This document shows, in pieces, positions 6,521 to 62,120 of a stretch of DNA of 64,000 nt. Every line of letters starts with the position of its first letter. The stretch's first letter is position 1. The notes under the pieces were generated by a model that had not been told where the DNA came from, did no database searches, and worked only from the letters and a program-made list of their open reading frames with translations. The stretch comes from Escherichia coli (lineage in GTDB: Bacteria; Pseudomonadota; Gammaproteobacteria; Enterobacterales; Enterobacteriaceae), in the NCBI RefSeq assembly GCF_003790525.1, contig NZ_CP033635.1; one strand, written 5' to 3'. The translations under genes and the position numbers were made by a program.

Positions 6521-6877
6521 GAGTCAGACAACGAAGTGAACATCAGGATGATGACACTTCTGAAGGACACACCAGGATGGTGTTTCAGGGAAAGGCTTCT
6601 GGATGAAGCGAAGAGGATGACGCAGGACGCGTTAAAGGACACCTCCAGGATGGAGAATGAGAACCGGTCAGGATGATTCGGTGGGTCAGGAAGGCCAGGA
6701 ACACTTCAGGATGAAGTATCACATCGGGGTGGTGTGAGCAGGAAGCAATAGTTCAGGATGAACGATTGGTCGCAAGGCCAGAGGAAAAGTTGTCAAGGAT
6801 GAGCAGGGAGCAACAAAAGTAGCTGGAATGCTGCGAAACGAACCGGGAGCACTGTGAATACAGTGCTCCCTTTTTTT
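6521..6877 (+). ncRNA. csrB: CsrB regulatory RNA (CsrA-sequestering sRNA)
   Basis: about 360 nt with roughly 20 reiterated CAGGATG / AGGA(N) motifs on the plus strand, ending in a GC hairpin (gggagcactg...cagtgctccc) plus T7 run; non-coding (minus-strand ORFs here are spurious). Confidence 0.9.
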
Positions 6878-6922
6878 ATTCCTGCTATCCTTCGCGGCAG
6901 TTTTTCTTATTGAGGTTGCTTT

Positions 6923-17383: not shown

Positions 17384-19618
17384 ATGGTTGCGGTAAGAAG
17401 TGCACATATCAATAAGGCTGGTGAATTTGATCCGGAAAAATGGATCGCAAGTCTGGGTATTACCAGCCAGAAGTCGTGTGAGTGCTTAGCCGAAACCTGG
17501 GCGTATTGTCTGCAACATACGCAGGGGCATCCGGATGCCAGTCTGTTATTGTGGCGTGGTGTTGAGATGGTGGAGATCCTCTCGACATTAAGTATGGACA
17601 TTGACACGCTGCGGGCGGCGCTGCTGTTCCCTCTGGCTGATGCCAACGTAGTCAGCGAAGATGTGCTGCGTGAGAGCGTCGGTAAGTCGGTCGTTAACCT
17701 TATTCACGGCGTGCGTGATATGGCGGCGATCCGCCAGCTGAAAGCGACGCATACCGATTCTGTTTCCTCCGAACAGGTCGATAACGTTCGCCGGATGTTA
17801 TTGGCGATGGTCGATGATTTCCGCTGCGTGGTCATCAAACTGGCAGAGCGTATTGCTCATCTGCGCGAAGTAAAAGACGCGCCGGAAGATGAACGCGTAC
17901 TGGCGGCAAAAGAGTGCACCAATATCTACGCGCCGTTGGCGAACCGTCTTGGGATTGGGCAACTGAAATGGGAGCTGGAAGATTACTGCTTCCGTTATCT
18001 CCACCCGACCGAATACAAACGCATCGCAAAACTGCTGCATGAACGCCGTCTCGACCGCGAACACTATATCGAAGAGTTTGTCGGCCACCTGCGCGCTGAG
18101 ATGAAAGCTGAAGGCGTTAAAGCTGAAGTGTATGGTCGTCCGAAACACATCTACAGCATCTGGCGCAAAATGCAGAAAAAGAACCTCGCCTTCGATGAGC
18201 TGTTTGATGTGCGTGCGGTACGTATTGTCGCCGAGCGTTTACAGGATTGTTATGCCGCACTGGGGATAGTGCACACTCACTATCGCCACCTGCCGGATGA
18301 GTTTGACGATTACGTCGCTAACCCGAAACCAAACGGTTATCAGTCTATTCATACCGTGGTTCTGGGACCAGGTGGCAAAACCGTTGAGATCCAAATCCGC
18401 ACTAAACAGATGCATGAAGATGCAGAGTTGGGTGTTGCTGCGCACTGGAAATATAAAGAGGGCGCGGCAGCTGGCGGCGCACGTTCGGGACATGAAGACC
18501 GGATTGCCTGGCTGCGTAAACTGATTGCGTGGCAGGAAGAGATGGCTGATTCCGGCGAAATGCTCGACGAAGTACGTAGCCAGGTCTTTGACGACCGGGT
18601 GTACGTCTTTACGCCGAAAGGTGATGTCGTTGATTTGCCTGCGGGATCAACACCGCTGGACTTCGCGTACCACATCCACAGTGATGTCGGACACCGCTGC
18701 ATCGGGGCAAAAATTGGCGGGCGCATTGTGCCGTTCACCTACCAGCTGCAGATGGGCGACCAGATTGAAATTATCACCCAGAAACAGCCGAACCCCAGCC
18801 GTGACTGGTTAAACCCAAATCTCGGTTACGTCACAACCAGTCGTGGGCGCTCGAAAATTCACGCCTGGTTCCGTAAACAGGATCGTGACAAAAACATTCT
18901 GGCTGGACGGCAAATCCTTGATGACGAGCTGGAACATCTGGGGATCAGCCTGAAAGAAGCAGAAAAACACCTGCTGCCGCGTTACAACTTCAATGATGTC
19001 GACGAGTTGCTGGCGGCGATTGGTGGCGGGGATATCCGTCTCAATCAGATGGTGAACTTCCTGCAATCGCAATTTAATAAGCCGAGTGCCGAAGAGCAGG
19101 ATGCCGCCGCGCTGAAACAGCTTCAGCAAAAAAGCTACACGCCGCAAAACCGCAGTAAAGATAACGGTCGTGTGGTGGTAGAAGGTGTCGGTAACCTGAT
19201 GCACCACATCGCGCGCTGCTGCCAGCCGATTCCTGGAGATGAGATTGTCGGCTTCATTACCCAGGGACGCGGTATTTCAGTACACCGCGCCGATTGCGAA
19301 CAACTGGCGGAACTGCGCTCCCATGCGCCAGAACGCATTGTTGACGCGGTATGGGGCGAGAGCTACTCCGCCGGATATTCGCTGGTGGTCCGCGTGGTGG
19401 CTAATGATCGTAGTGGGTTGTTACGTGATATCACGACCATTCTCGCCAACGAGAAGGTGAACGTACTTGGCGTTGCCAGCCGTAGCGACACCAAACAGCA
19501 ACTGGCGACCATCGACATGACCATTGAGATTTACAACCTGCAAGTGCTGGGCCGCGTGCTGGGTAAACTCAACCAGGTGCCGGATGTTATCGACGCGCGT
19601 CGGTTGCACGGGAGTTAG
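17384..19618 (+). CDS. relA: GTP pyrophosphokinase ((p)ppGpp synthetase I)
   Basis: 744-aa RelA/SpoT-family ORF; synteny rlmD-relA-mazEFG. Confidence 0.95.
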   Translation: MVAVRSAHINKAGEFDPEKWIASLGITSQKSCECLAETWAYCLQHTQGHPDASLLLWRGVEMVEILSTLSMDIDTLRAALLFPLADANVVSEDVLRESVGKSVVNLIHGVRDMAAIRQLKATHTDSVSSEQVDNVRRMLLAMVDDFRCVVIKLAERIAHLREVKDAPEDERVLAAKECTNIYAPLANRLGIGQLKWELEDYCFRYLHPTEYKRIAKLLHERRLDREHYIEEFVGHLRAEMKAEGVKAEVYGRPKHIYSIWRKMQKKNLAFDELFDVRAVRIVAERLQDCYAALGIVHTHYRHLPDEFDDYVANPKPNGYQSIHTVVLGPGGKTVEIQIRTKQMHEDAELGVAAHWKYKEGAAAGGARSGHEDRIAWLRKLIAWQEEMADSGEMLDEVRSQVFDDRVYVFTPKGDVVDLPAGSTPLDFAYHIHSDVGHRCIGAKIGGRIVPFTYQLQMGDQIEIITQKQPNPSRDWLNPNLGYVTTSRGRSKIHAWFRKQDRDKNILAGRQILDDELEHLGISLKEAEKHLLPRYNFNDVDELLAAIGGGDIRLNQMVNFLQSQFNKPSAEEQDAAALKQLQQKSYTPQNRSKDNGRVVVEGVGNLMHHIARCCQPIPGDEIVGFITQGRGISVHRADCEQLAELRSHAPERIVDAVWGESYSAGYSLVVRVVANDRSGLLRDITTILANEKVNVLGVASRSDTKQQLATIDMTIEIYNLQVLGRVLGKLNQVPDVIDARRLHGS

Positions 19619-19629
19619 GCCGAAACTTG

Positions 19630-19680
19630 TTCGTATCTACAATGTAGATCGATATATACTGTATCTACATATGATAGCGG
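19630..19680 (+). promoter_or_regulatory. mazEF promoter/operator region with alternating palindrome
   Basis: atctacaatgtagat palindrome and a second gtatctacatatgatag copy directly upstream of mazE. Confidence 0.5.
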
Positions 19681-19695
19681 TTTGAGGAAAGGGTT

Positions 19696-19944
19696 ATGAT
19701 CCACAGTAGCGTAAAGCGTTGGGGAAATTCTCCTGCAGTGCGGATCCCGGCTACGTTAATGCAGGCGCTCAATCTGAATATTGATGATGAAGTGAAGATT
19801 GACCTGGTGGATGGAAAATTAATTATTGAGCCAGTGCGTAAAGAGCCCGTATTTACGCTTGCTGAACTGGTCAACGACATCACGCCGGAAAACCTCCACG
19901 AGAATATCGACTGGGGGGAGCCGAAAGATAAGGAAGTCTGGTAA
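19696..19944 (+). CDS. mazE: antitoxin MazE
   Basis: 82-aa AbrB-fold antitoxin, overlaps mazF start. Confidence 0.9.
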
Positions 19945-20279
19945 TGGTAAGCCGATACGTACCCGATACGGGCGATCTGATTTGGGTTGATTTTGACCCG
20001 ACAAAAGGTAGCGAGCAAGCCGGACATCGTCCGGCTGTTGTCCTGAGTCCGTTCATGTACAACAACAAAACAGGTATGTGTCTGTGTGTTCCTTGTACAA
20101 CGCAATCAAAAGGATATCCGTTCGAAGTTGTTCTATCCGGTCAGGAACGTGATGGCGTAGCGTTAGCTGATCAGGTAAAAAGTATCGCCTGGCGGGCAAG
20201 AGGAGCAACGAAGAAAGGAACAGTTGCCCCAGAGGAATTACAACTCATTAAAGCCAAAATTAACGTGCTGATTGGGTAG
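19944..20279 (+). CDS. mazF: endoribonuclease toxin MazF
   Basis: 111-aa PemK/MazF-family ORF. Confidence 0.9.
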   Translation: MVSRYVPDTGDLIWVDFDPTKGSEQAGHRPAVVLSPFMYNNKTGMCLCVPCTTQSKGYPFEVVLSGQERDGVALADQVKSIAWRARGATKKGTVAPEELQLIKAKINVLIG

Positions 20280-20350
20280 GTGTTACTAACTCACTTCTAT
20301 TCTGGTCACAGGTTTCCACCTGACAGACCCGCAATTTTCAGGACAATTCA

Positions 20351-21142
20351 ATGAATCAAATCGACCGTTTGCTCACTATTATGCAGCGCCTGCGCGATCC
20401 GGAAAACGGCTGCCCGTGGGATAAAGAGCAGACATTTGCCACCATTGCGCCTTACACCCTTGAAGAAACCTACGAGGTGCTGGACGCCATCGCCCGTGAA
20501 GATTTTGACGATCTGCGCGGTGAACTGGGCGATCTGCTGTTCCAGGTGGTGTTTTACGCACAAATGGCTCAGGAAGAAGGGCGCTTTGACTTTAATGATA
20601 TTTGCGCTGCTATTAGCGATAAATTAGAGCGTCGCCATCCGCATGTTTTTGCTGACAGTTCTGCCGAAAACAGTAGTGAAGTGCTCGCCCGTTGGGAGCA
20701 AATCAAAACCGAAGAACGCGCGCAGAAAGCACAGCATTCGGCGCTGGATGATATTCCTCGTAGTTTACCGGCTTTAATGCGTGCGCAAAAAATCCAGAAA
20801 CGTTGCGCCAACGTTGGCTTCGACTGGACGACGCTTGGTCCGGTAGTCGATAAAGTCTACGAAGAGATCGACGAGGTGATGTACGAGGCGCAGCAGGCTG
20901 TTGTCGACCAGGCTAAACTGGAGGAGGAAATGGGTGACCTGCTGTTTGCCACGGTCAATCTGGCTCGTCATTTAGGGACAAAAGCGGAAATCGCATTGCA
21001 AAAAGCGAACGAAAAATTCGAGCGTCGTTTTCGCGAAGTGGAGCGTATTGTTGCCGCGCGTGGACTGGAAATGACAGGTGTTGACCTCGAAACAATGGAA
21101 GAAGTCTGGCAACAGGTAAAACGGCAGGAAATTGATCTCTAA
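20351..21142 (+). CDS. mazG: nucleoside triphosphate pyrophosphohydrolase MazG
   Basis: 263-aa ORF with tandem MazG domains. Confidence 0.9.
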   Translation: MNQIDRLLTIMQRLRDPENGCPWDKEQTFATIAPYTLEETYEVLDAIAREDFDDLRGELGDLLFQVVFYAQMAQEEGRFDFNDICAAISDKLERRHPHVFADSSAENSSEVLARWEQIKTEERAQKAQHSALDDIPRSLPALMRAQKIQKRCANVGFDWTTLGPVVDKVYEEIDEVMYEAQQAVVDQAKLEEEMGDLLFATVNLARHLGTKAEIALQKANEKFERRFREVERIVAARGLEMTGVDLETMEEVWQQVKRQEIDL

Positions 21143-24433: not shown

Positions 24434-25859
24434 TAATGCCAGTCAGTTAAGCAACTGACTGGCTCTTTTTCGGGGCTGTGGGGTATTTCCAGGGCCTCTC
24501 CTTTACCACTCTCGGGAAGGCCCTTTCCCTTCTTGTCGGTAATTTCACAAGTTGTCCCATACTTGCAAGATCGCGCATCAGCTCCGGTATACGTCCCGGT
24601 GAAGCGCCCTGCAATGTCATCAGCATTCTCATCACCATTCCACATGATTCTGAGAAACTCAGTTGATTCGGCCAGTAACCTTTCAGATATTCCGCCATTT
24701 TAATCATCTGATATCTCACCAGATTATAAGCCAGTAAGACACCCCACAGCTCTTGCTCCACAAGCTCCGGTTTTTTACTTCTCAGCGTCAGCCTGCTCAG
24801 TTGCATCGTCTGTTTTATCTCCCTGTATCCCAGTTCGATTTCCCAGCGATGACTGTACAGATCCGCCATTTCTCCTCCGGGGAAGCGCATGGCGTCCGTC
24901 ATCGACGTCAGCAGATGGCAGACTTTTCCTTTGCGCGTCACGGTCAGCAGGCGGGCTGTCACTTCATTTCCCAGTCCCGGCCACTTTTTTCGTGCCTGCG
25001 GGCTGGTTTTCAGCTTCACCAGATGATCGCCTTTACCCAGTTTTCTGATCTCTTCATATTGCGCTCCCTTTCTGAGAGGTATCATCCAGTGGCGGTGTTC
25101 TCCCGCCAGGCTCCAGGCATTTAACAGTCCCAGTGAGTAATAACCTTTATCCATTAACGTCAGAGTGTTATCGCCGGTTTGTTCTATAAGTTGCTCAGCA
25201 AGCTCATTTTCGCTGTTCTTCATCGTGCCGAAGGCTGCAGCCGTCAGCAGATGGCTGGTCAGTTCCATCTGGCAGACCATTTTGACCTGCGGGTAGAGCG
25301 CCGGGTTCCCGGCATGTGTCTGGCGGGGGAAGGCTGCATCGTTCTCTGGTGTATCCGGTGTGCGCCAGAACACACCATCGATGGCCAGCAGGGTCAGGCC
25401 GCACCAGTGCGGATGCGGCGTGGCGTTATGCCAGAGCTGCGCTGTTTTCGTGAACACGCGGCGGACAGCCTCACTTCCCAGGCGCTGGCGGGCCTGAATA
25501 ACGGCACTGGGGGCAACGAAGGGGCGATTGCCCGGCAGCATGATGTCCAGGCGATTCACAATCTGGTGAAGAGGTTCTTTACGCTCAAGCGCCATGCCAA
25601 CAATACACCAGACCATCATTTCGAGGGGAAGACGGCGCTTGCGTAGCGTTACAGTACCTGATTCGGCAAGGCAACGAGAGATGAGTTCGGGGTCGAGGTA
25701 ATCCCCCAGAGAAGTCAGTGGGTTACGCAGAGAATCGTAACGGGATACCAGATCAAGAGCCTGTCCAATGTGCATAAAAAAATCCGGAAACAAGTGAGCG
25801 TTTCCGGATTCTTACACAGCCACTGGATCGGTCAACTGATCCTTAACTGATCGGCATTA
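24434..25859 (-). mobile_element. IS4 insertion sequence
   Basis: about 1426 bp; terminal imperfect IRs (taatgccagtcagttaag / cttaactgatcggcattac); flanked by direct repeat cagccttcgggctg (13-14 bp); contains DDE transposase. Confidence 0.9.
24447..25775 (-). CDS. insG: IS4 transposase
   Basis: about 442-aa IS4-family DDE transposase ([15 protein letters not shown]...); track start 25793 is a short extension. Confidence 0.9.
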
Positions 25860-30371: not shown

Positions 30372-31379
30372 TTATCGGTAGCGTTTTTGTAGACTGGCAG
30401 GAAGATAACGCTGTAATGGGGATGGCGTTTCACCTTCAATCAGTTGCGAAATAAGTTCAAAGCAGTGAAAAGCAAGTTGGCGATTATCCTGTTGTATTGT
30501 GTCGATTCTTACCGAAAGTGAATCATACAAGTAATGATCATCAAAACTCGCCAGGTGGATTTTACTGTCGAGTAAATTATATTGGCTCATATAGCGCAGA
30601 ACGCCTTCCAGTAATCCACAAGCGGCAGTGAATAAGGCTTTAGGGGGACGTCCTAAACGAGCGCATAGCGCGGCAAACATTTCATAGCCTGAGCTCGGAT
30701 GATAATTACCGTGAATAATCCATTCAGGTTGTAGCGTTACTCCGGCTTGCTGCAAGCCTTGTGTAAATCCTTCCAGTCGATCGCGAGTCGGTGACAAACG
30801 GGGTTGTCCGCCCAGAAAATAGAATTCATCCGGGTGACTCCGTGCAATATCTGCCACCAGAGCGGCGGTGGGAGAAACAGAGTCAGTAATGACCAATGGC
30901 AATGTGCTGCCGTTCATGTGGCGATCGAACAACACAACAGGTAATTGCTCGCTAAGTTTTTGATAGTCATTATCATGCAGCATACTGGATGCGACGATTA
31001 ACCCATCAACCTGGCGGGCAATCATATTGTTCACCACCATTGTTTCCTGTGAAGGATTTTCATCAGTACAGGATATGAGGAGTTGGACTCCCGCTTCCCG
31101 ACACAATGTTTCCAGTTCATGGGAAAATACTGCAAATCCGTAGTTAGTGATTTCAGGAACGACGAGACCAATGGTGTGACTGCGGTTGTCCCGTAATGAG
31201 CGGGCATGAATGCTGGGCTGATAATGCTGCTGTTGGGCAATACTCAGCACACGCTCACGCGTTTCCTGCGCAACACGTAACTCTTTGCCACGACCATTGA
31301 GAACCAGACTGGCGGTTGCTTTCGACACTCCCGCCAGTTCAGCAATGTCTTTAATAGTAACGCGTTTGGTTTTTCTCAC
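30372..31379 (-). CDS. scrR: LacI-family sucrose operon repressor
   Basis: 335 aa; N-terminal HTH ([22 protein letters not shown]) plus periplasmic-binding-like fold; last gene of the scr cluster. Confidence 0.8.
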
Positions 31380-31404
31380 GACGAGGATCCGTAATTCAAA
31401 ACCC

Positions 31405-32814
31405 TCATTCTACCATGCAGGCGCGTAGCGACCAGTAGTGTAACGTGACGTCAGACTCGCCCTGTAATATCAGCGAAGCTGGATGATGGGGAAAATAACG
31501 ATTGCTCATTACGCCTTCGCCATTATTGATGAATATCTCTATGCTGGAACTGTCACAGAGAATCTTCAGTGACGTTACGCTTCCTCGCCAGTAACGAGTT
31601 AGTTTCTCTTGCCCTGCAAGGCTTTTCCTCTGTAGTTGAATACCATCGTCATTAAGATGCAGTGCCAGTGCGTTGCCAAAATTCAGATGTAGCTCGCCTG
31701 ATGGAATGATGTCCATTTCCAGACGTTCAATTGCGACAGGCGGCGCATGATCCGCTTTTCCTTGCCAGAAGTGTTCAGCTTCACGCAGTTGCGCGAGTTC
31801 CCTGATTGGCATCTGAAATAATTTTCCCTTCTGGAATGAGAGTTCGCGAAAACAGGTCATTTGATGCTGCCAATGATGCTTTCTGGTTGGTTGCAACATC
31901 TCTTCGCCATCAGGAACCCCCATCCAGCCGACCAGTAATCGTCGCCCGTCCGGGGCTTCCATCGTCTGTGGTGCATAGAATTCAAATCCCGCATCCAGCT
32001 CTGAGAAAGCGCCATGCGTAAATTTGCCTGTCTCGTAATCAAACTGTCCATGTAGCCAGGCGCAGGGATAGGTATTCAGATAGCGCTCATGTTCGCGCGC
32101 CATTCCCTGGGGGCAGCAGAGGAGAATGTATTCACCATCAAGGGCGAAAAGATCAGGACATTCCCACATGTATCCTGCGTTATCAATTTCATTCAGACCA
32201 TTACCAGCAATTTCTCCATGAAAAGACCAGGTATAGAGATCGACAGAGGAATACAGCAGCACTTTCCCCCGTTTCTCTTTATCTTGCGCGCCAAGCACCA
32301 TGTACCATCGGCTGTTGTGCTTCCAGACTTTTGGATCACGAACATGTCCGGTGTAACCATCAGGTAACGGTATGACAGGGCCTAATTTATCAAACCCGCC
32401 CTGGTTATTTTCGGTGGCCAGACATTGCCATGCCGTTCTGCTGCCATCATCAAACTTAACATTACCGGTATAGCAAAGTGTGAGAACGCCCTGATTATTA
32501 ACCGCGCTTCCTGAGTAACAACCATTACGGTCATACTCTTTATCGGGCATTAGCGCTAATGGTTCATGCTGCCAGTGCAATAAATCCGTCGAACTCCAGT
32601 GCCCCCAACATTTGTACTTATGATTACAATCCAATGGATTCCACTGATAAAACAGATGATAGCGGCCTCCTGACCAGCAAAAGCCATTTGGATCGTTCAT
32701 TAGTCCGGTGACGGGAGCGAGATGCCAACAAGGATAGTGGGCATCTGCCTGTGCTTTGGACTGACCTTTCATCACTGCCTGTAAAATCGCGGGCATTTGT
32801 GAAGGCATCGACAT
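31405..32814 (-). CDS. scrB: sucrose-6-phosphate hydrolase (GH32 invertase)
   Basis: 469 aa with GH32 NDPNG catalytic motif. Confidence 0.85.
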
Positions 32815-34184
32815 TACTCCTCGTCTGTTTTGTATTTGAGCAATAAAGAGAGACTAAAAGCGACAGCGAAAGCAATCACCATTCCAATAATATAATTAAC
32901 CAACGATGTTGGCTGAACGATTGCCATGCCGGGTATTGCGGTCAGACCAACGGCAGTCATATAAACGTGAACAGAGACAACCCAGGCACCGCCGGCAGCG
33001 CCACCAATTAAGGCCGCAATAAAAGGTTTAACAAAACGAAGGTTGATACCAAAAATAGCGGCTTCAGTAATCCCTAACATTGCGGAAAAAGCCGAGGGTA
33101 GGGTGATTGCTTTAATTTTTGTATCTTTGGTTTTAAACCATACCGCCAGACATGCACCGCCTTGCGCAACGTTTGCCATTGCCCAAATAGGCAGCAGGAA
33201 ATTAACACCGATTGCAGGGTTACCTAAAAGTCCTGCTTCAATTGCGTGGAAGCTATGATGAATACCCGTAATAACAATCGCTGAATATAGCCCGCCGAAT
33301 AACAACCCCGCTAACCAGCCAGCGTGTGCAATCAGCGTGCTGAGAACGAAAGAGATACCATCACCTAACGCTCGCCCTGCCGGACCAATAATTAAAAGAG
33401 CGATAAAGCCAGAAATGACGACAGTCAGAAATGGCGTCAGAATGAGATCCAGAGCATCAGGGATAAACCTGCGTAACTGTTTTTCCACTATGCTCATAAA
33501 CCATACTGCCAGAAGCACGGGGAAAACCGTTCCCTGATAGCCAATCATGGCGATTTCAAAACCGAAGAAGTTCATTGTCTGAAATCCCGCAGCAACGCCC
33601 CAGGCATTTGTGAGTGCCGGGTGAGTCAGAATCCCTCCTAATGTCGCGCCAAGATAAGGATTTCCACCAAATTCACGAGCAGCAGTAAAGCCAATCAGGA
33701 TGGGGAGAATAATAAATGCGGCTGAACTGCACATATCCAGCAGGATATAAATCGCATTATCGGCATTCACCCAGCCATATGTTTTCACCATTCCCAGAAG
33801 CCCCATTAATAAACCAGAAGCAACAATGGCAGGAATGATGGGGACAAAAATATTAGAAAGCAGCCGTGCTATTCGCTGAAAAGGATTGAGTTTTTGAGCG
33901 GCGAGTCGAGCGGTATCTGCTTTACTGGATTCGCTAATACCCGCAACCTGAATAAAGGCAGCATAGACTTTATTAACCACGCCGGTGCCAAAGATGATCT
34001 GCATTTGCCCTGAATTACGAAAACAACCTTTCACTCCATCAATCTGGCCAATGGCATGTTGATCGGCAAGTGTGTCGTCAACCAGTACCAGCCGTAGGCG
34101 AGTGGCGCAATGTGCTGCACTGGCGATGTTCTCCTTACCACCTAATAAAGGAAGCAACGATTGGGCGATTTTATCGAAATCCAT
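32814..34184 (-). CDS. scrA: PTS sucrose-specific EIIBC component
   Basis: 456 aa; N-terminal EIIB Cys motif (CATRLRL) followed by polytopic EIIC. Confidence 0.85.
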   Translation of the reverse strand: MDFDKIAQSLLPLLGGKENIASAAHCATRLRLVLVDDTLADQHAIGQIDGVKGCFRNSGQMQIIFGTGVVNKVYAAFIQVAGISESSKADTARLAAQKLNPFQRIARLLSNIFVPIIPAIVASGLLMGLLGMVKTYGWVNADNAIYILLDMCSSAAFIILPILIGFTAAREFGGNPYLGATLGGILTHPALTNAWGVAAGFQTMNFFGFEIAMIGYQGTVFPVLLAVWFMSIVEKQLRRFIPDALDLILTPFLTVVISGFIALLIIGPAGRALGDGISFVLSTLIAHAGWLAGLLFGGLYSAIVITGIHHSFHAIEAGLLGNPAIGVNFLLPIWAMANVAQGGACLAVWFKTKDTKIKAITLPSAFSAMLGITEAAIFGINLRFVKPFIAALIGGAAGGAWVVSVHVYMTAVGLTAIPGMAIVQPTSLVNYIIGMVIAFAVAFSLSLLLKYKTDEE

Positions 34185-34244
34185 ATAACCCTCTAATTCA
34201 TTGTTATTTCAGTAAAAGCCTCACATTCGTGAGGCTGTCTGGTA

Positions 34245-35786
<1,542 letters not shown>

Positions 35787-35805
35787 TTATAAAAATTGCT
35801 AAAAT

Positions 35806-35879
35806 GCTAAACCGGTTTAGGTGTTGATAATAAAGCTGACTTTTTAGCCAGAGCAATTATTTTCGCTAAACCGATTTAG
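35806..35879. promoter_or_regulatory. two palindromic operator-like sites (gctaaaccggtttag at 35806-35820; gctaaaccgatttag at 35865-35879) in the scrY promoter region
   Basis: near-perfect LacI-type palindromes TAAACCGGTTTA in the scrK-scrY intergenic region. Confidence 0.55.
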
Positions 35880-35929
35880 TAAATGTGACAGGCACGACAA
35901 ATCGGGTTACAGATACAACAGCAGGATCA

Positions 35930-36850
35930 CTATTGTGAAGGGAGATCGTGTTGTCGGGGTAAGGCGGTTATCGCGCCTTTAGCCGTGGTCGCCAGAGCAC
36001 CACAAATCTGAGCTTGTGCAATGATTCGTTCAAGCTGTCTGGTATTTGTTGGTATTCCAGAATCAGCCAGACCTGCAAGTAATCCAGCGACAAAAGCATC
36101 TCCTGCCCCGGTCGTATCGACGACAGAAACAGGTTTGGCGGGATAGTGGATAAACTGCCCCTGAAAATACACAAGTACGCCATTTTTTCCTTGTGTAATA
36201 AGCAATAAAGTCAACGAATAACGTTGTACTAATGAATATGCGCCTTGCTGAACCTGGCTTTCGCCACTGATGAATAGCAACTCTTCTTCGGACAATTTAG
36301 CGATATTCGCCAGCGAAAGTGCGCGATCAAGGTATTTCCTTAATAGCGCTTCACTCTGCCAGAGATCGCTGCGGATATTGGGATCAAAACTGATGTTTCC
36401 GCCAGCCTGACGTATTTTCTCCATAGCCAGAAATGCGGTACTTCGGGAAGGTTCTGCACTGAGCGCAATGGAACAAAGATGGAGCCATTCACCCGGCCCA
36501 AATGCAGGAAGGTCACCAGGTTGTAAAAAAAGATCGGCACTTGGGCGTACCATAAAGGTAAAGTTTCTTTCTCCTTGCTCATCAAGTCCTACAGCCACAA
36601 TTGAGGTGCGTTGTTGAGGATCAAGAGACATATAATGTGTATCAACATTTTCTGTACTCAGTGTCTGATACATAAAGCGACCGAAAGGATCATCGCCAAC
36701 TTTGCCAATAAAGGCACTTTTCCCCCCCAGCCTTGCGATACCGACTGCAACATTAGCAGGCGCCCCGCCAGGACACTGTAGTAGTCTCCCCTGGCTTTCG
36801 GGTAATAAATCAACAACCGCATCACCGAGTACCCATACTCTTGCGCTCAT
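35930..36850 (-). CDS. scrK: fructokinase (PfkB family)
   Basis: 306 aa with PfkB signature (DTTGAGDAF). Confidence 0.85.
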   Translation of the reverse strand: MSARVWVLGDAVVDLLPESQGRLLQCPGGAPANVAVGIARLGGKSAFIGKVGDDPFGRFMYQTLSTENVDTHYMSLDPQQRTSIVAVGLDEQGERNFTFMVRPSADLFLQPGDLPAFGPGEWLHLCSIALSAEPSRSTAFLAMEKIRQAGGNISFDPNIRSDLWQSEALLRKYLDRALSLANIAKLSEEELLFISGESQVQQGAYSLVQRYSLTLLLITQGKNGVLVYFQGQFIHYPAKPVSVVDTTGAGDAFVAGLLAGLADSGIPTNTRQLERIIAQAQICGALATTAKGAITALPRQHDLPSQ

Positions 36851-52864: not shown

Positions 52865-53072
52865 GCGAGCAGCATTCCTGATTTTAAACGTGAACGTCGT
52901 TGGAAGAATTAACAGGTATAGAATGGCGTTGGGTGCTTGAGGCTGTCTGGCGTTAAGCATTCGCGAGGTTCCAGATGGACAAAAGCCCCAGGCGATATTT
53001 CTATCAACCTGAGGCCAGCGTTCGAACCCAAACAATTCGAATGTTAGTCTCTTCTTTGCAGGGAGGCAAGAC

Positions 53073-53225
53073 ATGCTGACAAAATATGCCCTTGTGGCAA
53101 TCATAGTGCTGTGTTTTACAGTACTGGGATTCACGCTGATGGTAGGCGACTCGTTGTGTGAGTTGAGTATCAGAGAACGTGGTATGGAGTTTAAGGCGGT
53201 TCTCGCTTACGAATCGAAGAAGTAG
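53073..53225 (+). CDS. Hok/Gef-family type I toxin (HokE-like small membrane peptide)
   Basis: 50-aa [53 protein letters not shown]; single TM helix, conserved Cys and C-terminal AYES motif; GGGAGG RBS; not in the supplied ORF track (below length cut-off). Confidence 0.8.
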
Positions 53226-53246: not shown

Positions 53247-54585
53247 CATAAGCGCTAACTTAAGGGTTGTGGTATTACGCCTGATATGATTTAACGTGCC
53301 GATGAATTACTCTCACGATAACTGGTCAGCAATTCTGGCCCATATTGGTAAGCCCGAAGAACTGGATACTTCGGCACGTAATGCCGGGGCTCTAACCCGC
53401 CGCCGCGAAATTCGTGATGCTGCAACTCTGCTACGTCTGGGGCTGGCTTACGGCCCCGGGGGGATGTCATTACGTGAAGTCACTGCATGGGCTCAGCTCC
53501 ATGACGTTGCAACATTATCTGACGTGGCTCTCCTGAAGCGGCTGCGGAATGCCGCCGACTGGTTTGGCATACTTGCCGCACAAACACTTGCTGTACGCGC
53601 CGCAGTTACGGGTTGTACAAGCGGAAAGAGATTGCGTCTTGTCGATGGAACAGCAATCAGTGCGCCCGGGGGCGGCAGCGCTGAATGGCGACTACATATG
53701 GGATATGATCCTCATACCTGTCAGTTCACTGATTTTGAGCTAACCGACAGCAGAGACGCTGAACGGCTGGACCGATTTGCGCAAACGGCAGACGAGATAC
53801 GCATTGCTGACCGGGGATTCGGTTCGCGTCCCGAATGTATCCGCTCACTTGCTTTTGGAGAAGCTGATTATATCGTCCGGGTTCACTGGCGAGGATTGCG
53901 CTGGTTAACTGCAGAAGGAATGCGCTTTGACATGATGGGTTTTCTGCGCGGGCTGGATTGCGGTAAGAACGGTGAAACCACTGTAATGATAGGCAATTCA
54001 GGTAATAAAAAAGCCGGAGCTCCCTTTCCGGCACGTCTCATTGCCGTATCACTTCCTCCCGAAAAAGCATTAATCAGTAAAACCCGACTGCTCAGCGAGA
54101 ATCGTCGAAAAGGACGAGTAGTTCAGGCGGAAACGCTGGAAGCAGCGGGCCATGTGCTATTGCTAACATCATTACCGGAAGATGAATATTCAGCAGAGCA
54201 AGTGGCTGATTGTTACCGTCTGCGATGGCAAATTGAACTGGCTTTTAAGCGGCTCAAAAGTTTGCTGCACCTGGATGCTTTGCGTGCAAAGGAACCTGAA
54301 CTCGCGAAAGCGTGGATATTTGCTAATCTACTCGCCGCATTTTTAATTGACGACATAATCCAGCCATCGCTGGATTTCCCCCCCAGAAGTGCCGGATCCG
54401 AAAAGAAGAACTAACTCGTTGTGGAGAATAACAAAAATGGTCATCTGGAGCTTACAGGTGGCCATTCGTGGGACAGTATCCCTGACAGCCTACAAAACGC
54501 AATTGAAGAACGCGAGGCATCGTCTTAACGAGGCACCGAGGCGTCGCATTCTTCAGATGGTTCAACCCTTAAGTTAGCGCTTATG
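53247..54585 (+). mobile_element. IS186 insertion sequence
   Basis: 1339 bp; perfect 23-bp terminal IRs (cataagcgctaacttaagggttg); flanking about 11-bp direct repeat gggtaaaaccc within a GGGG-N6-CCCC palindrome. Confidence 0.9.
53302..54414 (+). CDS. insL: IS186 transposase (IS4 family)
   Basis: about 370 aa from MNYSHDNWSAILAHIGKPEEL, recognisable as the IS186 transposase. Confidence 0.9.
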   Translation: MNYSHDNWSAILAHIGKPEELDTSARNAGALTRRREIRDAATLLRLGLAYGPGGMSLREVTAWAQLHDVATLSDVALLKRLRNAADWFGILAAQTLAVRAAVTGCTSGKRLRLVDGTAISAPGGGSAEWRLHMGYDPHTCQFTDFELTDSRDAERLDRFAQTADEIRIADRGFGSRPECIRSLAFGEADYIVRVHWRGLRWLTAEGMRFDMMGFLRGLDCGKNGETTVMIGNSGNKKAGAPFPARLIAVSLPPEKALISKTRLLSENRRKGRVVQAETLEAAGHVLLLTSLPEDEYSAEQVADCYRLRWQIELAFKRLKSLLHLDALRAKEPELAKAWIFANLLAAFLIDDIIQPSLDFPPRSAGSEKKN

Positions 54586-54768: not shown

Positions 54769-57468
54769 ATGCGTAAATATCCTTTAAGTTTACTGAAGGA
54801 TAAAAATATTGTGACTTTTTTTGATTTCTGGGGAAAAACCCGACGCGGCGAGAAAGACGGGGGCGACGACTATCACCTTCTTTGCTGGCATTCGCTGGAT
54901 GTAGCCGCGATGGGCTATTTAATGGTTAAAAGCAATTGCTTCGGACTGGCTGACTATTTTCGTCAATTAGGTTTCGCTGACACGGAGCAGGCAGCACAAT
55001 TTTTCGCCTGGCTGCTGTGCTGGCACGATATTGGAAAATTTGCCCGCTCTTTTCAGCAACTTTACCTGCACCCACAACTCAAGGTCCCGGAAGGCGCAAG
55101 AAAGAATTACGAAAAGATCTCTCATTCAACGCTGGGCTACTGGTTGTGGAACCATTATTTAAGTGAATGTCAGGAGTTGCTTCCTTCATCTTCACTCTCT
55201 CCGCGCAAACTTAAACGGGTGATGGAGATGTGGATGCCCATGACTACCGGGCATCATGGTCGACCCCCTGAGCGTATGGATGAACTGGATAATTTTCTGC
55301 CTGAAGACAAAGGTGCCGCACGAGATTTTCTCCTTGCAATCAAGGTACTGTTTCCGCTCATAGAGATCCCCACATTCTGGGATGATGACGAGGGCGTTGA
55401 ACTTATAAAACAACTTTCCTGGTATATCTCTGCAACCGTCGTACTTGCAGACTGGACGGGATCGTCAACGCGATATTTTCCACGCGTCGCACAGACAATG
55501 GATATTGAAGATTACTGGCAGAAAACTTTAGTTCAGGCTCAAAACGCCTTAACCGTCTTTCCTCCAAAAGCAGAAAGCGCGCCTTTCACCGGAATTAATA
55601 CGCTGTTTCCTTTTATTGAGAATCCGACACCGCTACAGCAAAAGGTGCTGGATCTGGATATCAGCCAGCCGGGACCACAGTTATTTATTCTGGAGGATGT
55701 AACCGGCGCAGGTAAAACAGAAGCGGCGCTTATCCTGGCGCACAGGTTGATGGCTGCGGGGAAAGCGCAGGGTTTGTTTTTTGGCCTGCCAACAATGGCA
55801 ACGGCCAATGCCATGTACGATCGACTGGTCAAAACCTGGCTTGCTTTCTATTCGCCAGAGTCCCGCCCCAGCCTGGTGCTGGCACACAGTGCCCGAACAT
55901 TAATGGACCGCTTTAATGAATCACTCTGGTCCGGTGATTTAGTCGGGTCAGAAGAACCGGATGAACAAACGTTCAGTCAGGGATGTGCGGCCTGGTTTGC
56001 CGACAGTAACAAGAAGGCGCTACTGGCTGAAATTGGCGTCGGCACGCTGGATCAGGCGATGATGGCTGTGATGCCGTTCAAACATAATAATCTGCGGCTT
56101 CTGGGACTGAGTAACAAAATCCTGCTGGCTGATGAGATCCATGCCTGTGACGCTTACATGTCATGCATTCTTGAAGGGCTGATCGAGCGGCAGGCGCGTG
56201 GCGGAAACAGCGTCATTTTGCTTTCTGCCACGTTATCTCAACAGCAGCGCGACAAACTCGTTGCTGCCTTTGCGCGTGGTATAGAGGGCCAGCAAGAAGC
56301 TCCGTTCCTGGAAAAGGATGATTACCCCTGGCTGACGCACGTTACGAAATCCGATGTGCATTCACACCGGGTAGCGACGCGCAAAGACGTTGAGCGCAGC
56401 GTGAGTGTGGGTTGGCTTCATAGCGAACAAGAGTGTATTGCGCGTATCGCATCGGCGGTAAGTCAGGGGAAATGTATCGCCTGGATCCGAAATTCTGTCG
56501 ATGACGCCATCCAGGTTCATCGTCAGTTACTTGCCCGCGGCGTCATTCCTGCTTCCAGCCTTTCACTTTTTCATAGCCGCTTTGCTTTTAGCGATCGCCA
56601 GCGAATTGAAACGGAGACGCTGGCACGCTTTGGTAAAGAAGACTGTTCACAGCGTGCCGGAAAAGTCCTCATTTGTACTCAAGTCCTGGAGCAGAGCGTT
56701 GACTGCGACCTGGACGAAATGATTTCCGACCTTGCCCCTGTTGATTTACTGATCCAGCGAGCAGGGCGATTACAGCGACATATCCGCGATATGAATGGCC
56801 AGTTAAAGCGTGACGGTAAAGACGAGCGTCACCCTCCTGAATTGCTGATTCTGGCCCCCGTCTGGGACGACTCTCCGGGTGACGAATGGTTTGGCAGTGC
56901 CATGCGTAACAGTGCATTTGTCTATCCCGATCATGGGCGAATCTGGCTGACGCAGCGTGTGCTGCGTGAGCAAGGTGCTATTCAGATGCCACACTCAGCC
57001 CGGCTTCTGATTGAATCAGTCTACGGTGAGGACGTAGTAATGCCGGAAGGGTTTGCCCGCAGCGAGCAGGAGCAAGTGGGCAAATATTACTGCGATCGCG
57101 CAATGGCTAAAAAGTTTGTACTGAACTTCAGGCCCGGCTATGCCGCCAATATCAACGATTACCTCCCGGAAAAACTGTCGACACGTCTGGCTGAAGAGTC
57201 TGTTTCCCTGTGGCTGGCTACCTGTATTGACGGTGTGGTGAAGCCTTATGCCACAGGTGCACACGCATGGGAAATGAGCGTTGTCAGAGTGCGCCGAAGC
57301 TGGTGGAAAAAACATCGGGATGAGTTTTCTTTACTGGAAGGGGATGCGTTCAGGCAGTGGTGCGTTGAACAGCGGCATGATCCGGAGATGGCAAACGTGA
57401 TTTTAGTCACCGATGACGAAAGTTGTGGGTATTCGGCTACGGAGGGATTGATTGGCAAGGTTGGTTGA
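54769..57468 (+). CDS. cas3: Cas3 nuclease-helicase (type I-E)
   Basis: 899 aa; N-terminal HD motif (HSLDVAAM), Walker A (TGAGKTEAAL), DExH (DEIHA); heads the cas operon. Confidence 0.9.
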   Translation: MRKYPLSLLKDKNIVTFFDFWGKTRRGEKDGGDDYHLLCWHSLDVAAMGYLMVKSNCFGLADYFRQLGFADTEQAAQFFAWLLCWHDIGKFARSFQQLYLHPQLKVPEGARKNYEKISHSTLGYWLWNHYLSECQELLPSSSLSPRKLKRVMEMWMPMTTGHHGRPPERMDELDNFLPEDKGAARDFLLAIKVLFPLIEIPTFWDDDEGVELIKQLSWYISATVVLADWTGSSTRYFPRVAQTMDIEDYWQKTLVQAQNALTVFPPKAESAPFTGINTLFPFIENPTPLQQKVLDLDISQPGPQLFILEDVTGAGKTEAALILAHRLMAAGKAQGLFFGLPTMATANAMYDRLVKTWLAFYSPESRPSLVLAHSARTLMDRFNESLWSGDLVGSEEPDEQTFSQGCAAWFADSNKKALLAEIGVGTLDQAMMAVMPFKHNNLRLLGLSNKILLADEIHACDAYMSCILEGLIERQARGGNSVILLSATLSQQQRDKLVAAFARGIEGQQEAPFLEKDDYPWLTHVTKSDVHSHRVATRKDVERSVSVGWLHSEQECIARIASAVSQGKCIAWIRNSVDDAIQVHRQLLARGVIPASSLSLFHSRFAFSDRQRIETETLARFGKEDCSQRAGKVLICTQVLEQSVDCDLDEMISDLAPVDLLIQRAGRLQRHIRDMNGQLKRDGKDERHPPELLILAPVWDDSPGDEWFGSAMRNSAFVYPDHGRIWLTQRVLREQGAIQMPHSARLLIESVYGEDVVMPEGFARSEQEQVGKYYCDRAMAKKFVLNFRPGYAANINDYLPEKLSTRLAEESVSLWLATCIDGVVKPYATGAHAWEMSVVRVRRSWWKKHRDEFSLLEGDAFRQWCVEQRHDPEMANVILVTDDESCGYSATEGLIGKVG

Positions 57469-57565
57469 GATGTCTGCGACAGGATTCTCTGAATAGTTGA
57501 TACACAAAAAAGGATGGAAGGATGGACAACCGACCAGGGATGGTCTTTTTTACGAGAGGATGCGT

Positions 57566-59128
57566 ATGAACTCGTTTTCACTTCTGACAACCCCGTGGTT
57601 GCCTGTTCGTTTCAAAGACGGAACGACAGGCAAGCTGGCACCAGTCGATCTGGCTGATGAAAATGTTGTCGATATCGCCGCACCGCGAGCAGATTTACAA
57701 GGTGCGGCCTGGCAGTTTTTGCTGGGACTACTACAAACCAGCTTCGCGCCAAAAGATCATCGTCGTTGGGATGATATCTGGGAAGACGGACTGGAAGCTG
57801 AAAAGCTACGAGAAGCATTGCTGTCTTTAGAACATGCTTTCCAGTTTGGGCCTGATTCATCTTCATTTATGCAGGATTTTGAGGCGCTCACGGGAGATAA
57901 AGTTCCGGTCGCTTCGCTACTGCCTGAGATTCCCGGCTCTCAAACGACGAAGTTTAATAAAGACCATTTTATCAAGCGGGGTGTAACGGAATATCTGTGC
58001 CCCCATTGCTTAGCATTGGCCTTGTTCTCTTTACAGTTGAATGCACCCGCGGGCGGCAAAGGCTATCGCACCGGTTTACGAGGCGGTGGGCCGATGACGA
58101 CTCTCATTGAATTACAGGAATATCAGGGCAATCAACAAACACCCTTGTGGCGCAAACTGTGGCTCAACGTGATGCCGCAGGATGAAGCCGACTTACCGCT
58201 ACCCAAAAAATTTGACGATCTGATTTTCCCCTGGCTAGGCCCGACGCGTACCAGCGAACTGGTCGGTGCGGTGGTAACCCATGATCAGGTCAATAAACTC
58301 CAGGCGTACTGGGGAATGCCGCGGCGTATACGTATTGATTTTAATACCACGACAGTCGGCAACTGCGATATTTGCGACGAGCAGAACGACGCGCTCCTGA
58401 GCCTGATGACGACCAAAAATTATGGTGCCAATTATGCCATGTGGCAGCATCCCTTAACGCCTTACCGTGTACCACTTAAAGAGGGTGGCGAGTTTTACTC
58501 CGTTAAACCACAACCGGGCGGTTTAATCTGGCGCGACTGGTTAGGCCTTATCGAAACGGGTAAATCAGAAAACAATACGGAACTTCCCGCGTTGGTGGTG
58601 AAACTCTTTAATGCCAGCAGTCTGAAACAGGCAAAAGTGGGCCTATGGGGATTTGGTTATGATTTTGACAACATGAAAGCGCGCTGTTGGTACGAACACC
58701 ATTTCCCGCTACTGCTCAATAAAAAAGAAGGCCAGATACCGAAGCTGCGGCTGGCTGCGCAAACGGCTTCACGGATTCTGAGTCTGTTACGGAGTGCATT
58801 GAAAGAAGCATGGTTCTCCGATCCAAAAGGTGCAAGGGGTGATTTCAGTTTTGTGGATATCGACTTCTGGAACAAAACTCAGCATCGCTTCCTGAGGTTA
58901 GTGCGCCAAATTGAAGAAGGTCAGGATGCGGATGAATTACTCGGCAAATGGCAAAAGGAAATGTGGTTATTCGCGCGTCAGGATTTTGACGAGCGTGTAT
59001 TCACTAATCCTTATGAGCCCGTTGATTTGAAACGCGTCATGACCGCGCGCAAGAAATATTTTACAACATCGGCGGAGAAGCAAAGTGCTAAAGCCGCCAG
59101 GGAGAAAAAGCAGGAGGCTGCTGAATGA
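57566..59128 (+). CDS. casA: Cascade large subunit Cse1/CasA (Cas8e)
   Basis: about 520 aa from MNSFSLLTTPWLPVR with AGGA RBS; track start 57497 likely an extension; position after cas3. Confidence 0.8.
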   Translation: MNSFSLLTTPWLPVRFKDGTTGKLAPVDLADENVVDIAAPRADLQGAAWQFLLGLLQTSFAPKDHRRWDDIWEDGLEAEKLREALLSLEHAFQFGPDSSSFMQDFEALTGDKVPVASLLPEIPGSQTTKFNKDHFIKRGVTEYLCPHCLALALFSLQLNAPAGGKGYRTGLRGGGPMTTLIELQEYQGNQQTPLWRKLWLNVMPQDEADLPLPKKFDDLIFPWLGPTRTSELVGAVVTHDQVNKLQAYWGMPRRIRIDFNTTTVGNCDICDEQNDALLSLMTTKNYGANYAMWQHPLTPYRVPLKEGGEFYSVKPQPGGLIWRDWLGLIETGKSENNTELPALVVKLFNASSLKQAKVGLWGFGYDFDNMKARCWYEHHFPLLLNKKEGQIPKLRLAAQTASRILSLLRSALKEAWFSDPKGARGDFSFVDIDFWNKTQHRFLRLVRQIEEGQDADELLGKWQKEMWLFARQDFDERVFTNPYEPVDLKRVMTARKKYFTTSAEKQSAKAAREKKQEAAE

Positions 59129-59661
59129 GTATTGTAAAAGAGGAGCACAAAGCCACGCTGCGTAAATGGCACGAAGAGTTGCAGGAAAAACGCGGCAATC
59201 GTGCCAGTCTGCGGCGTAGCACAACGGTTAATGATGTTTGTCTGTCAGAAGGTTTTCGTTCTCTGCTGATGCAGACCCACACGTTGTGGAAAATTGAATC
59301 ACAGGAGTGGCGTTTTACCGCACTGGCGCTGGTTGCCGCCGTTGCCGCCAATGTAAAAGCCATTGATGAACGGCAGCCTTTTGCCGCGCAGTTGGCGGCG
59401 GTAATGTCTGAGGGGCGTTTTACTCGCCTGTCGGCAATCAAAACGCCGGATGATTTACTGCGCCAGTTACGTCGCGCGGTCAAATTATTAAACGGTTCCG
59501 TCAATCTTATCTCTTTGGCAGACGATATTTTCCGCTGGTGCCAGGAGAGTGACGACCTGCTCAACCATCACCGCCGTCAGCAGCGGCCAACAGAATTTAT
59601 CCGTATCCGCTGGGCGCTGGAATATTACCAGGCTGGCGACGCCGATAACGAACAAAATTAA
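59125..59661 (+). CDS. casB: Cascade small subunit Cse2/CasB
   Basis: 178 aa; ATGA overlap with casA stop; operon position. Confidence 0.8.
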   Translation: MSIVKEEHKATLRKWHEELQEKRGNRASLRRSTTVNDVCLSEGFRSLLMQTHTLWKIESQEWRFTALALVAAVAANVKAIDERQPFAAQLAAVMSEGRFTRLSAIKTPDDLLRQLRRAVKLLNGSVNLISLADDIFRWCQESDDLLNHHRRQQRPTEFIRIRWALEYYQAGDADNEQN

Positions 59662-59675
59662 TAAAGGACTATCTC

Positions 59676-60731
59676 ATGACGACATTTATTCAGCTTCATT
59701 TGTTAACCGCTTACCCTGCAGCCAACCTTAACCGTGATGACACCGGTGCGCCGAAAACCGTGGTGCTGGGTGGAGCAACGCGTCTGCGCGTTTCCTCGCA
59801 AAGTCTGAAACGTGCGTGGCGCACTTCTGCACTTTTTGAACAGGCGCTGGCGGGCCATATTGGTATTCGTAGTGGGCGTATCGCGCGCGAGGCAGCAACT
59901 ATCATGATAGAGAAAGGAATCGAAGAAAAAAAAGCCATCGAATGGGCGGCAGATATTGCCGATTATCTTGGTAAAGCCAAAAAAGACAAAAAACCAAAAG
60001 ATCCGCTCACTAACGCTGAAACTGAACAGCTCGTCCATATCAGCCCGGCAGAATTTGACGCCGTAAAAGCGCTGGCCCATCAACTGGCAGAAGAAAAGCG
60101 CGCGCCAAAAGAGGACGATCTCGCTTTGTTACGTAAAGATCGTATGGCGGTAGATATCGCCATGTTTGGTCGTATGCTGGCGAATAAACCCGAGTTTAAT
60201 GTTGAAGCCGCCTGTCAGGTCGCGCACGCGTTTGGTGTCAGTGAAACGATTGTCGAAGATGATTTTTTCACCGCCGTTGATGATTTGCGCCAGGCCTCTG
60301 AAGATGCTGGTGCAGGGCATCTTGGTGAAACTGGATTTGGTTCTGCGCTGTTCTACACCTATATCTGCATTGATAAAGATCTGCTGGTCGAAAACCTCGG
60401 CGGTGACGAAGCATTAGCTAATCAGACCCTGCGCGCCTTTACGGAAGCAGCGTTTAAAGTTTCCCCAACCGGTAAACAAAACAGCTTTGCCAGCCGTGCC
60501 TACGCCTCCTGGGCGCTGGCAGAAAAAGGCACCGAACAACCGCGTTCTCTGGCGGCGGCTTTCTATGAACCCATTAATGGCACACGTCAGTTAGATGTGG
60601 CGGTGCAGCGTATTACAACGCTTCGCGAAAACATGAATACGGTTTACGAACAGAAGACCGAATGCGCAAGTTTTGACGTGATGAACAAACAGGGAAGCAT
60701 GAAGGACGTGCTGGACTTTATCTGCGCGTAA
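59676..60731 (+). CDS. casC: Cascade backbone subunit Cas7/CasC
   Basis: 351 aa; operon position. Confidence 0.85.
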   Translation: MTTFIQLHLLTAYPAANLNRDDTGAPKTVVLGGATRLRVSSQSLKRAWRTSALFEQALAGHIGIRSGRIAREAATIMIEKGIEEKKAIEWAADIADYLGKAKKDKKPKDPLTNAETEQLVHISPAEFDAVKALAHQLAEEKRAPKEDDLALLRKDRMAVDIAMFGRMLANKPEFNVEAACQVAHAFGVSETIVEDDFFTAVDDLRQASEDAGAGHLGETGFGSALFYTYICIDKDLLVENLGGDEALANQTLRAFTEAAFKVSPTGKQNSFASRAYASWALAEKGTEQPRSLAAAFYEPINGTRQLDVAVQRITTLRENMNTVYEQKTECASFDVMNKQGSMKDVLDFICA

Positions 60732-60741
60732 GGGGCGGCTT

Positions 60742-61488
60742 ATGAGCCAATATCTGATTTTTCAGCTTCATGGGCCAATGGCATCCTGGGGCGTTGATGC
60801 ACCCGGTGAGGTGCGTCATAGCCATGAACTGCCTTCGCGTTCAGCATTGCTGGGGCTGCTGGCTGCCGGGGTAGGGATACGGCGTGATGACACCGAATGC
60901 TTAAACGCGTTTAATCGCCACTATTCACTGGTGGTTTGCGCCAGCCGTAACCCGCGCTGGGCACGGGATTATCACACGGTCCAGATGCCAAAAGAGGTGC
61001 GTAAAGCGCGTTATTTCAGCCGTCGCGAAGAGTTGAGCGACCCTGATCTTCTAAGCGCGATTATCTCCCGGCGCGACTACTACACCGATGCCTGGTGGAT
61101 GGTGGCCGTGGCAACAACAGCTGATGCGCCTTACAGCCTCGAACAGTTGCAGGAAGGTTTACGCCATCCGGTTTTTCCGCTTTATCTGGGGCGAAAAAGC
61201 CATCCGCTGGCATTACCCCTTGCGCCGTTACTGCTCGAAGGCAACGCGTCTGATGCCTTACGTAACGCATACCAACAGTATCAGGATCGTTTCCACGAAC
61301 TAAAAGTCTCACTCCCGAAACTTCAGGATGAATGCTGGTGGGAAGGGGAGCACGATGGCCTGGTCTCGAGCAAAATATTACGCCGCCGGGATGTTCCTTT
61401 AAATCGTCAGCAGTGGCTGTTTGGGGAACGCACCGTCAATCAGGGGCCGTGGCTCAGCAAGGAGGAACCATGTACCTCTCAAGAATAA
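60742..61488 (+). CDS. casD: Cascade subunit Cas5/CasD
   Basis: 248 aa; operon position; N-terminal LIFQLHGPMASWG resembles the K-12 CasD N-terminus. Confidence 0.8.
   Translation: MSQYLIFQLHGPMASWGVDAPGEVRHSHELPSRSALLGLLAAGVGIRRDDTECLNAFNRHYSLVVCASRNPRWARDYHTVQMPKEVRKARYFSRREELSDPDLLSAIISRRDYYTDAWWMVAVATTADAPYSLEQLQEGLRHPVFPLYLGRKSHPLALPLAPLLLEGNASDALRNAYQQYQDRFHELKVSLPKLQDECWWEGEHDGLVSSKILRRRDVPLNRQQWLFGERTVNQGPWLSKEEPCTSQE

Positions 61489-62116: not shown

Positions 62117-62120
<4 letters not shown>
61470..62120 (+). CDS. casE: CRISPR RNA endoribonuclease Cas6e/CasE
   Basis: 216 aa from MYLSRITLHTGQ with AGGAGG RBS; ends GCGLMLIKP; track start 61332 is an extension. Confidence 0.85.

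Follow-up and report, generated by a model that had tools for sequence, protein, structure and literature searches.

Positions 19630-20279 of the analysed DNA almost certainly hold the canonical chromosomal mazEF (chpA) type II toxin-antitoxin module of Escherichia coli at its usual site between relA and mazG. The whole stretch of DNA that was analysed, referred to here as the window, comprises 64,000 nucleotides of contig NZ_CP033635.1 (assembly GCF_003790525.1), and the span in question runs from the operator through the mazF stop codon. The module is already known: it is a textbook locus in a known position and in a known genome lineage. Its identification as mazEF in a preliminary description of the DNA is supported by equivalog matches, by identity to K-12, by gene order and by the arms of the operator.

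The mazE gene (19696-19944, plus strand) encodes an antitoxin of 82 residues with an AbrB/MazE-type DNA-binding domain, and mazF (19944-20279, plus strand) encodes an endoribonuclease toxin of 111 residues; both assignments follow from the open reading frames and from Pfam and NCBIfam matches. The genes are co-directional with the antitoxin gene first, and share one nucleotide in the stop/start overlap TAATG. MazE scored 52.9 bits against Pfam MazE_antitoxin (PF04014) and 196 bits against the NCBIfam equivalog NF007312, for which the cut-off is 113. For MazF, the scores were 85 bits against Pfam PemK_toxin (PF02452) and 226 bits against the equivalog NF007386 (cut-off 120). In the alignment to K-12 MG1655, all 82 residues of MazE are identical, including those of the N-terminal AbrB/MazE domain and of the disordered C-terminal MazF-binding tail. 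The DNA-binding residues of MazE have been described as K7, R8, W9, N11 and R16 (PMC4333400). MazF is identical to its K-12 counterpart at 110 of 111 positions, the sole difference being the non-conservative exchange M9T. Near-identical chains for MazE and MazF are present in the solved structures 1UB4, 1MVF, 2MRN/2MRU, 3NFC and 5CK9. Judging from this near-identity to characterised proteins, MazF would be expected to cut at ACA and to be neutralised by MazE, which in turn would be degraded by ClpAP and Lon.

The neighbourhood is that of the relA-mazEFG cluster. Upstream lies relA (GTP diphosphokinase; 17384-19618, plus strand), identified from its open reading frame and the RefSeq annotation, and downstream follow mazG (nucleoside triphosphate pyrophosphohydrolase; 20351-21142, plus strand) and pyrG, which starts at 21370 in the list of open reading frames. 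The order relA-mazE-mazF-mazG-pyrG is the same as in the RefSeq annotations of K-12 and SMS-3-5.

The operator is located in the 77-nt spacer between relA and mazE. Two strings had been quoted from this promoter region in the preliminary description, and both are present as quoted, ATCTACAATGTAGAT at 19635-19649 and TATCTACAT (tatctacat) at 19662-19670. The former, atctacaatgtagat, is a perfect 7+1+7 palindrome. It is composed of the upstream arm 'c' (ATCTACA, 19635-19641), which is identical to K-12, and of the middle arm ATGTAGAT (19642-19649), found by the repeat finder. The downstream arm 'b', ATCTACAT, occupies 19663-19670 and holds the start of promoter P2 (A at 19667). As the middle arm is complementary to the upstream ATCTACA as well as to the downstream arm, it is able to pair with either of them, which makes the palindrome 'alternating'; an alternating palindrome has been described for this operator in PMC4803016 and PMC3879964. 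An ATATAT palindromic core is found at 19652-19657, between the middle and the downstream arm. The central MazE site, taken from the Zorzini 'a' oligo (PMC4333400), spans 19649-19662 and reads TTGATATATACTGT in K-12 and TCGATATATACTGT here. All three arms, the ATATAT core, the ribosome-binding site, the P2 -10 hexamer and the P2 start are unchanged compared with K-12, and the 40-nt operator core is identical at 39 of 40 positions. The lone difference, 19650 T>C, lies within the central MazE site. The earlier statement that the operator is intact therefore holds for the three arms, but not for this one base.

The position of the promoters was derived from published oligonucleotides. The 'Sense_MazEF' oligo comprises the 75 bp lying upstream of position +1 in the mazEF promoter (PMC8749433, Data Set S1) and maps to 19592-19666; as it ends at 19666, the +1 of P2 is the A at 19667, inside arm b. 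The P2 -10 hexamer TATACT (-12 to -7) is found at 19655-19660 on the plus strand, while the -35 zone CGTATC (19632-19637) is poor. P2 is the upstream promoter and is overlapped by arm b, and P3 is located 13 bp downstream of it (PMC3879964). With this spacing, the start of P3 would be near 19680. A generic sigma-70 scan missed P2; its sole pick was a site in the leader, which was disregarded. A Shine-Dalgarno-like GAGGA, read from the sequence, is located at 19684-19688 (plus strand), 7 nt before the mazE ATG. The degenerate FIS consensus GNNYRNNWNNYRNNC matches at 19618 and at 19606, with 0.2 matches expected per 141 nt. The first match is the 15-mer GGCCGAAACTTGTTC (19618-19632), centred at about -42 of P2, a candidate FIS activation site; the base changes 19626 T>C and 19630 C>T affect only unconstrained (N) positions of the consensus. 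The FIS site has been placed upstream of the palindrome (PMC4803016), and the 15-mer is a plausible position for this published activation site.

Few 40-mers of the region are less polymorphic than the operator core, in keeping with a real protein-binding site. The K-12-type 40-nt core is present exactly in 4,353 of approximately 4,415 mazEF-bearing genomes. Among the E. coli-type metagenome contigs with the operator, 28 of 29 have the K-12 spacer and one carries another change; in the same contigs, several variants of the FIS-like segment immediately upstream occur. The operator pattern had 38 metagenome matches, nine of which were set aside as chance matches, being unrelated, with other spacers and no MazE downstream. 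One of these nine, inspected individually (L024), lacks downstream toxin-antitoxin genes and appears to be eukaryotic, perhaps a retroelement. On one human-gut metagenome contig (L019, 12275-12310), the operator carries an A>G exchange in the P2 -10 hexamer (TATACT>TATGCT); the frame after this operator is not MazE at the expected offset, and the contig may hold a decaying copy. A collection of species-representative genomes gave no match to the operator pattern, nor to MazE residues 7-18 in degenerate back-translation; both patterns do match the window. This null result is likely caused by the representative genomes, the E. coli one included, lacking the module or being divergent in sequence.

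Alignment to the K-12 mazEF promoter, which had been proposed as a check in the preliminary description, shows three intergenic differences and unchanged arms. Over 801 aligned bases, 15 differences from K-12 were found, 14 substitutions and, just past the mazF stop codon, an insertion of 1 nt. The coding changes are five silent ones in mazE, and M9T together with five silent ones in mazF. The intergenic changes are 19626 T>C, 19630 C>T and 19650 T>C, at -41, -37 and -17 of P2, respectively. Over these 801 nt, the identity is 100% to E. coli SMS-3-5 (NC_010498.1), compared with 98.1% to K-12. For the allele counts, 40-nt queries centred on the variable base were used, as a central mismatch abolishes the megablast seed. 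With these queries, 19650C was found in 24 of the approximately 4,415 mazEF-bearing genomes, set against the 4,353 with the K-12 allele. The carriers and the 24 genomes with 100.0% identity to the window over 16 kb are the same set, the next-best genomes being at 99.4%; they are SMS-3-5 and 23 clonal relatives. None of the 29 E. coli-type metagenome contigs with the operator has the allele. The confinement of 19650C to the 24 closest relatives suggests a single inherited mutation, without any hint of recurrence. The genome analysed here belongs to the SMS-3-5 clone, and its base changes with respect to K-12 most likely represent neutral markers of the lineage.

Some of the silent changes lie in a second regulatory element. 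Opposite mazEF, an antisense RNA named aMEF has been reported (PMC8749433). Its 75-bp promoter, located with the oligo from Data Set S1 of that study, lies inside mazF at 19984-20058 on the minus strand, with the transcription start site at 19983. In comparison with K-12 it carries three silent changes, at 20021 (-38), 20033 (-50) and 20051 (-68), and is identical to the 'Shig_asmazEF' oligo of the same data set, for whose activity the main text of PMC8749433 gives no result. As very divergent aMEF promoters are reported to remain active (PMC8749433), a functional effect of the three changes is not expected. A minus-strand open reading frame of 146 codons (19665-20105) was rejected as a mechanical one; its start is upstream of the aMEF start site, and it is without support. 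The single amino acid exchange in MazF has a wider distribution than the operator change. T9 occurs in 490 genomes, with E2348/69, IHE3034 and NC101 among them, and M9 in 3,919. All 12 ACA sites of the mazEF transcript are conserved with respect to K-12.

Three other explanations of the locus were weighed against a canonical module with neutral markers. The palindromes might not be an operator, but a chance feature or the terminator of relA. A lone palindrome of 15 nt is indeed within chance for 64 kb (six 7+1+7 palindromes in the window, compared with 3.5 +/- 2.0 in shuffled sequences), and this one begins 16 nt beyond the relA stop codon. The three-arm pattern ATCTACANTGTAGAT-N8-18-ATCTACAT, however, is found a single time in the window and in none of the 100 shuffled sequences with preserved dinucleotides, and three of the window's four copies of ATCTACA fall inside these 36 nt of operator. 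No terminator-like site was found on the plus strand, the stem being AT-rich and devoid of a T run, and in the inspected strain lacking the module the palindrome is gone along with mazEF. The sequence, moreover, equals the experimentally studied K-12 operator; this identity effectively refutes a chance feature or terminator, for which we see next to no probability. A regulatory effect of 19650 T>C in an otherwise canonical module is more conceivable, as the base lies beside modelled contact bases and in a candidate P3 -35 hexamer, and through altered MazE affinity, a weaker P3 or Dam methylation the change might measurably alter regulation. Position 19650 is the second base of the 'a' oligo and the second-last base of the Zorzini 'c' oligo. 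In the 15-bp oligo of the MazE-DNA model it is position 3, one base outside the modelled contacts; in the model, specific hydrogen bonds are formed to oligo positions 4/5 and 6 (PMC4333400). The exchange, at about -30 of P3, also turns TTGATA into TCGATA. The former is the strongest -35 candidate for a TATGAT -10 hexamer that would serve P3, and the best match drops from 5/6 to 4/6. A new GATC arises within the operator (19647-19650), which is otherwise nearly invariant in the species. Finally, the MFE of the window operator, -4.4 kcal/mol, belongs to a c-a hairpin, with -4.3 kcal/mol for its a-b hairpin, while in K-12 the MFE is that of the a-b hairpin (-4.1 kcal/mol), so that the minimum shifts to c-a in the window. 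The single-strand DNA folds of -4.1 to -4.4 kcal/mol are, however, no better than those of shuffled sequences (z about -1); the stability of a cruciform is hence evidence neither way.

Other observations also speak against an altered regulation. The allele marks a single clone, without recurrence hinting at selection, numerous engineered mutations of the palindrome are reported to be without effect on MazEF binding (PMC4803016, citing Marianovsky 2001), P3 is approximately ten-fold weaker than P2 (PMC4803016, PMC3879964), and GATC is common, with 273 copies in the window. Taken together, we consider a measurable effect of 19650 T>C on regulation unlikely. Slightly more doubtful still is the more specific idea that the mazEF autoregulation of the SMS-3-5 clone, in which 19650C is fixed, has been rewired by nature and perhaps tied to the replication cycle; this would require that the methylation state of the new Dam site, or the base change itself, affects MazE/MazEF binding or promoter strength. 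A functional decay of the module in this lineage, for example with M9T making the toxin weaker or the silent aMEF promoter changes reducing MazEF expression, is very unlikely. It would be in line with the non-conservative nature of the MazF change and with the change at 20021 (-38) being equal to one of the five pMUT substitutions that jointly knock down the aMEF promoter. Against decay, the three -10 positions mutated in that knock-down are unchanged here, very divergent aMEF promoter sequences are reportedly tolerated (PMC8749433), and both open reading frames are of full length. T9 is moreover found in the 490 genomes across diverse lineages and on a metagenome contig with a MazF identical at 111 of 111 positions, so that it is a standing allele rather than a recent lesion. 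The canonical module with neutral lineage markers hence remains the preferred reading. The SMS-3-5 clone provides a natural single-base operator variant that can be used for probing the tolerance of the operator, and the common T9 allele of MazF is likewise available for experiments.

Regulation of this locus by MazE, MazF and FIS can be inferred from the K-12 literature (PMC4333400, PMC4803016, PMC3879964, PMC8749433), all elements being essentially identical in sequence. MazE dimers would bind to the three sites of the 47-bp operator via their N-terminal AbrB-type domains. MazF dimers would bridge the MazE dimers and thereby raise the affinity, while an excess of MazF would lower it again. 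The resulting MazEF complex would repress P2 and P3, both of which lie inside the operator, and FIS, binding just upstream of it, would activate P2. As MazE is expected to be labile, a stop of its synthesis would release MazF to cut single-stranded RNA at ACA, its own mRNA included. Additional control may come from the antisense promoter inside mazF. What chromosomal mazEF does for the cell physiologically is disputed (PMC7167474).

Of the known systems, K-12 mazEF (chpA; Marianovsky et al. 2001, Zorzini et al. 2015) is the counterpart, with the same relA and mazG neighbours, an identical MazE, and the same arms, ATATAT core, P2 -10 and +1, ribosome-binding site and 12 ACA sites; it differs in MazF residue 9 (M9T), at 19626, 19630 and 19650, and by the three silent changes in the aMEF promoter. 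The paralogous chromosomal module chpB of E. coli (ChpS/ChpBK) combines an antitoxin of the AbrB type with a toxin of the PemK/MazF type, the same fold families as here, but is found at another genomic location. With 34.6 bits against the ChpS equivalog (cut-off 101) and 55.4 bits against that of the ChpB toxin (cut-off 129), the proteins score far below the respective cut-offs, and the locus is therefore not chpB. The plasmid parD/pem systems (Kis-Kid of R1, PemI-PemK of R100) belong to the same toxin superfamily (Pfam PemK_toxin) and share the regulatory logic, in which antitoxin-toxin complexes autoregulate and their stoichiometry tunes operator binding (PMC4333400). In contrast to the chromosomal module described here, they are plasmid-borne, and their operators differ in sequence and architecture. 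A more distant similarity exists to the operator complex of Rickettsia felis VapB2 (PDB 3ZVK), an AbrB-type antitoxin recognising the same ATATATACT core as MazE (PMC4333400); its partner, however, is the PIN-domain toxin VapC, in an unrelated genome context.

The further claim that mazEF is part of the core genome did not hold. Of 5,425 matching complete E. coli genomes, only 4,415 have a full-length copy (at least 80% of the region), while approximately 1,010 (19%) match the relA end only, with or without the mazG leader. In the inspected example without mazEF, NZ_CP082827.1, mazG directly follows relA. This is no clean deletion: at the counterpart of window positions 19619-20327 (1560-1654 of the inspected sequence, L003), the approximately 700-nt mazEF segment, from the relA stop codon to a shared CACCTGACAGACCCGC upstream of mazG, is replaced by an unrelated filler of 60 nt, which has the hairpin CTGGATA-N12-TATCCAG. 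The two alleles are hence alternative cassettes. In agreement with this distribution, such systems are described as missing from many strains, e.g. UTI89, in which relA-mazG then forms an undisturbed operon (PMC7167474). No plasmid-borne mazEF match was found in 5,426 E. coli genomes. The pair is hence better treated as accessory, being present in ca. 81% of complete E. coli genomes.

The hok locus, listed in the preliminary description as a second toxin module of the window, is real. At 52931-53088, sok (Rfam RF01794) was detected with 111 bits, compared with a gathering score of 59, and an open reading frame of 50 codons at 53073-53225 matches Pfam HOK_GEF with 43 bits (threshold 22) and is annotated in RefSeq as 'Hok/Gef family protein'. 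Against the NCBIfam HokA equivalog it scored 57.7, below the cut-off of 89, which leaves the assignment at the level of the Hok/Gef family. An IS4-family (IS186/IS421-type) element of 1,337 bp (53248-54584) begins 22 nt beyond the hok stop codon; it has perfect 22-nt terminal inverted repeats ATAAGCGCTAACTTAAGGGTTG and is flanked by a 12-bp duplication GGGGTAAAACCC. Judging from published K-12 hok loci, the element may cut off the 3' end of the hok mRNA, and the module may not be functional. The 2-kb span from hok through the insertion element to the start of cas3 is covered to at least 80% in at least 1,382 E. coli genomes. The otherwise matching RefSeq record of SMS-3-5 does not contain the element, and over its first 40,360 bases the window differs from that record at only three positions (55, 56 and 25956). 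Taken together, these differences show that the window derives from a very close relative or another assembly rather than from NC_010498.1 itself.

Several other features of the window were recorded. The regulatory RNA CsrB gave a full-length Rfam match of 383 bits at 6521-6880 on the plus strand. Immediately downstream of eno, at about 24447-25793 on the minus strand, lies an IS4 transposase gene, followed by genes for TPM-domain and LemA proteins; one of the TPM genes is a pseudogene in the SMS-3-5 annotation. Between queE and ygcE, an accessory island at about 30372-36850 (minus strand) carries a sucrose utilisation cluster, which according to the SMS-3-5 annotation comprises a LacI-family regulator, a sucrose-6-phosphate hydrolase, a sucrose PTS IIBC component, a carbohydrate porin and an aminoimidazole riboside kinase. 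A complete type I-E cas operon, from cas3 to cas2, occupies 54769-63330. A CRISPR array (63427-64000) has a period of 61 nt and at least ten repeats (GTGTTCCCTGCGCCAGCGGGGATAA...), and runs off the end of the window.
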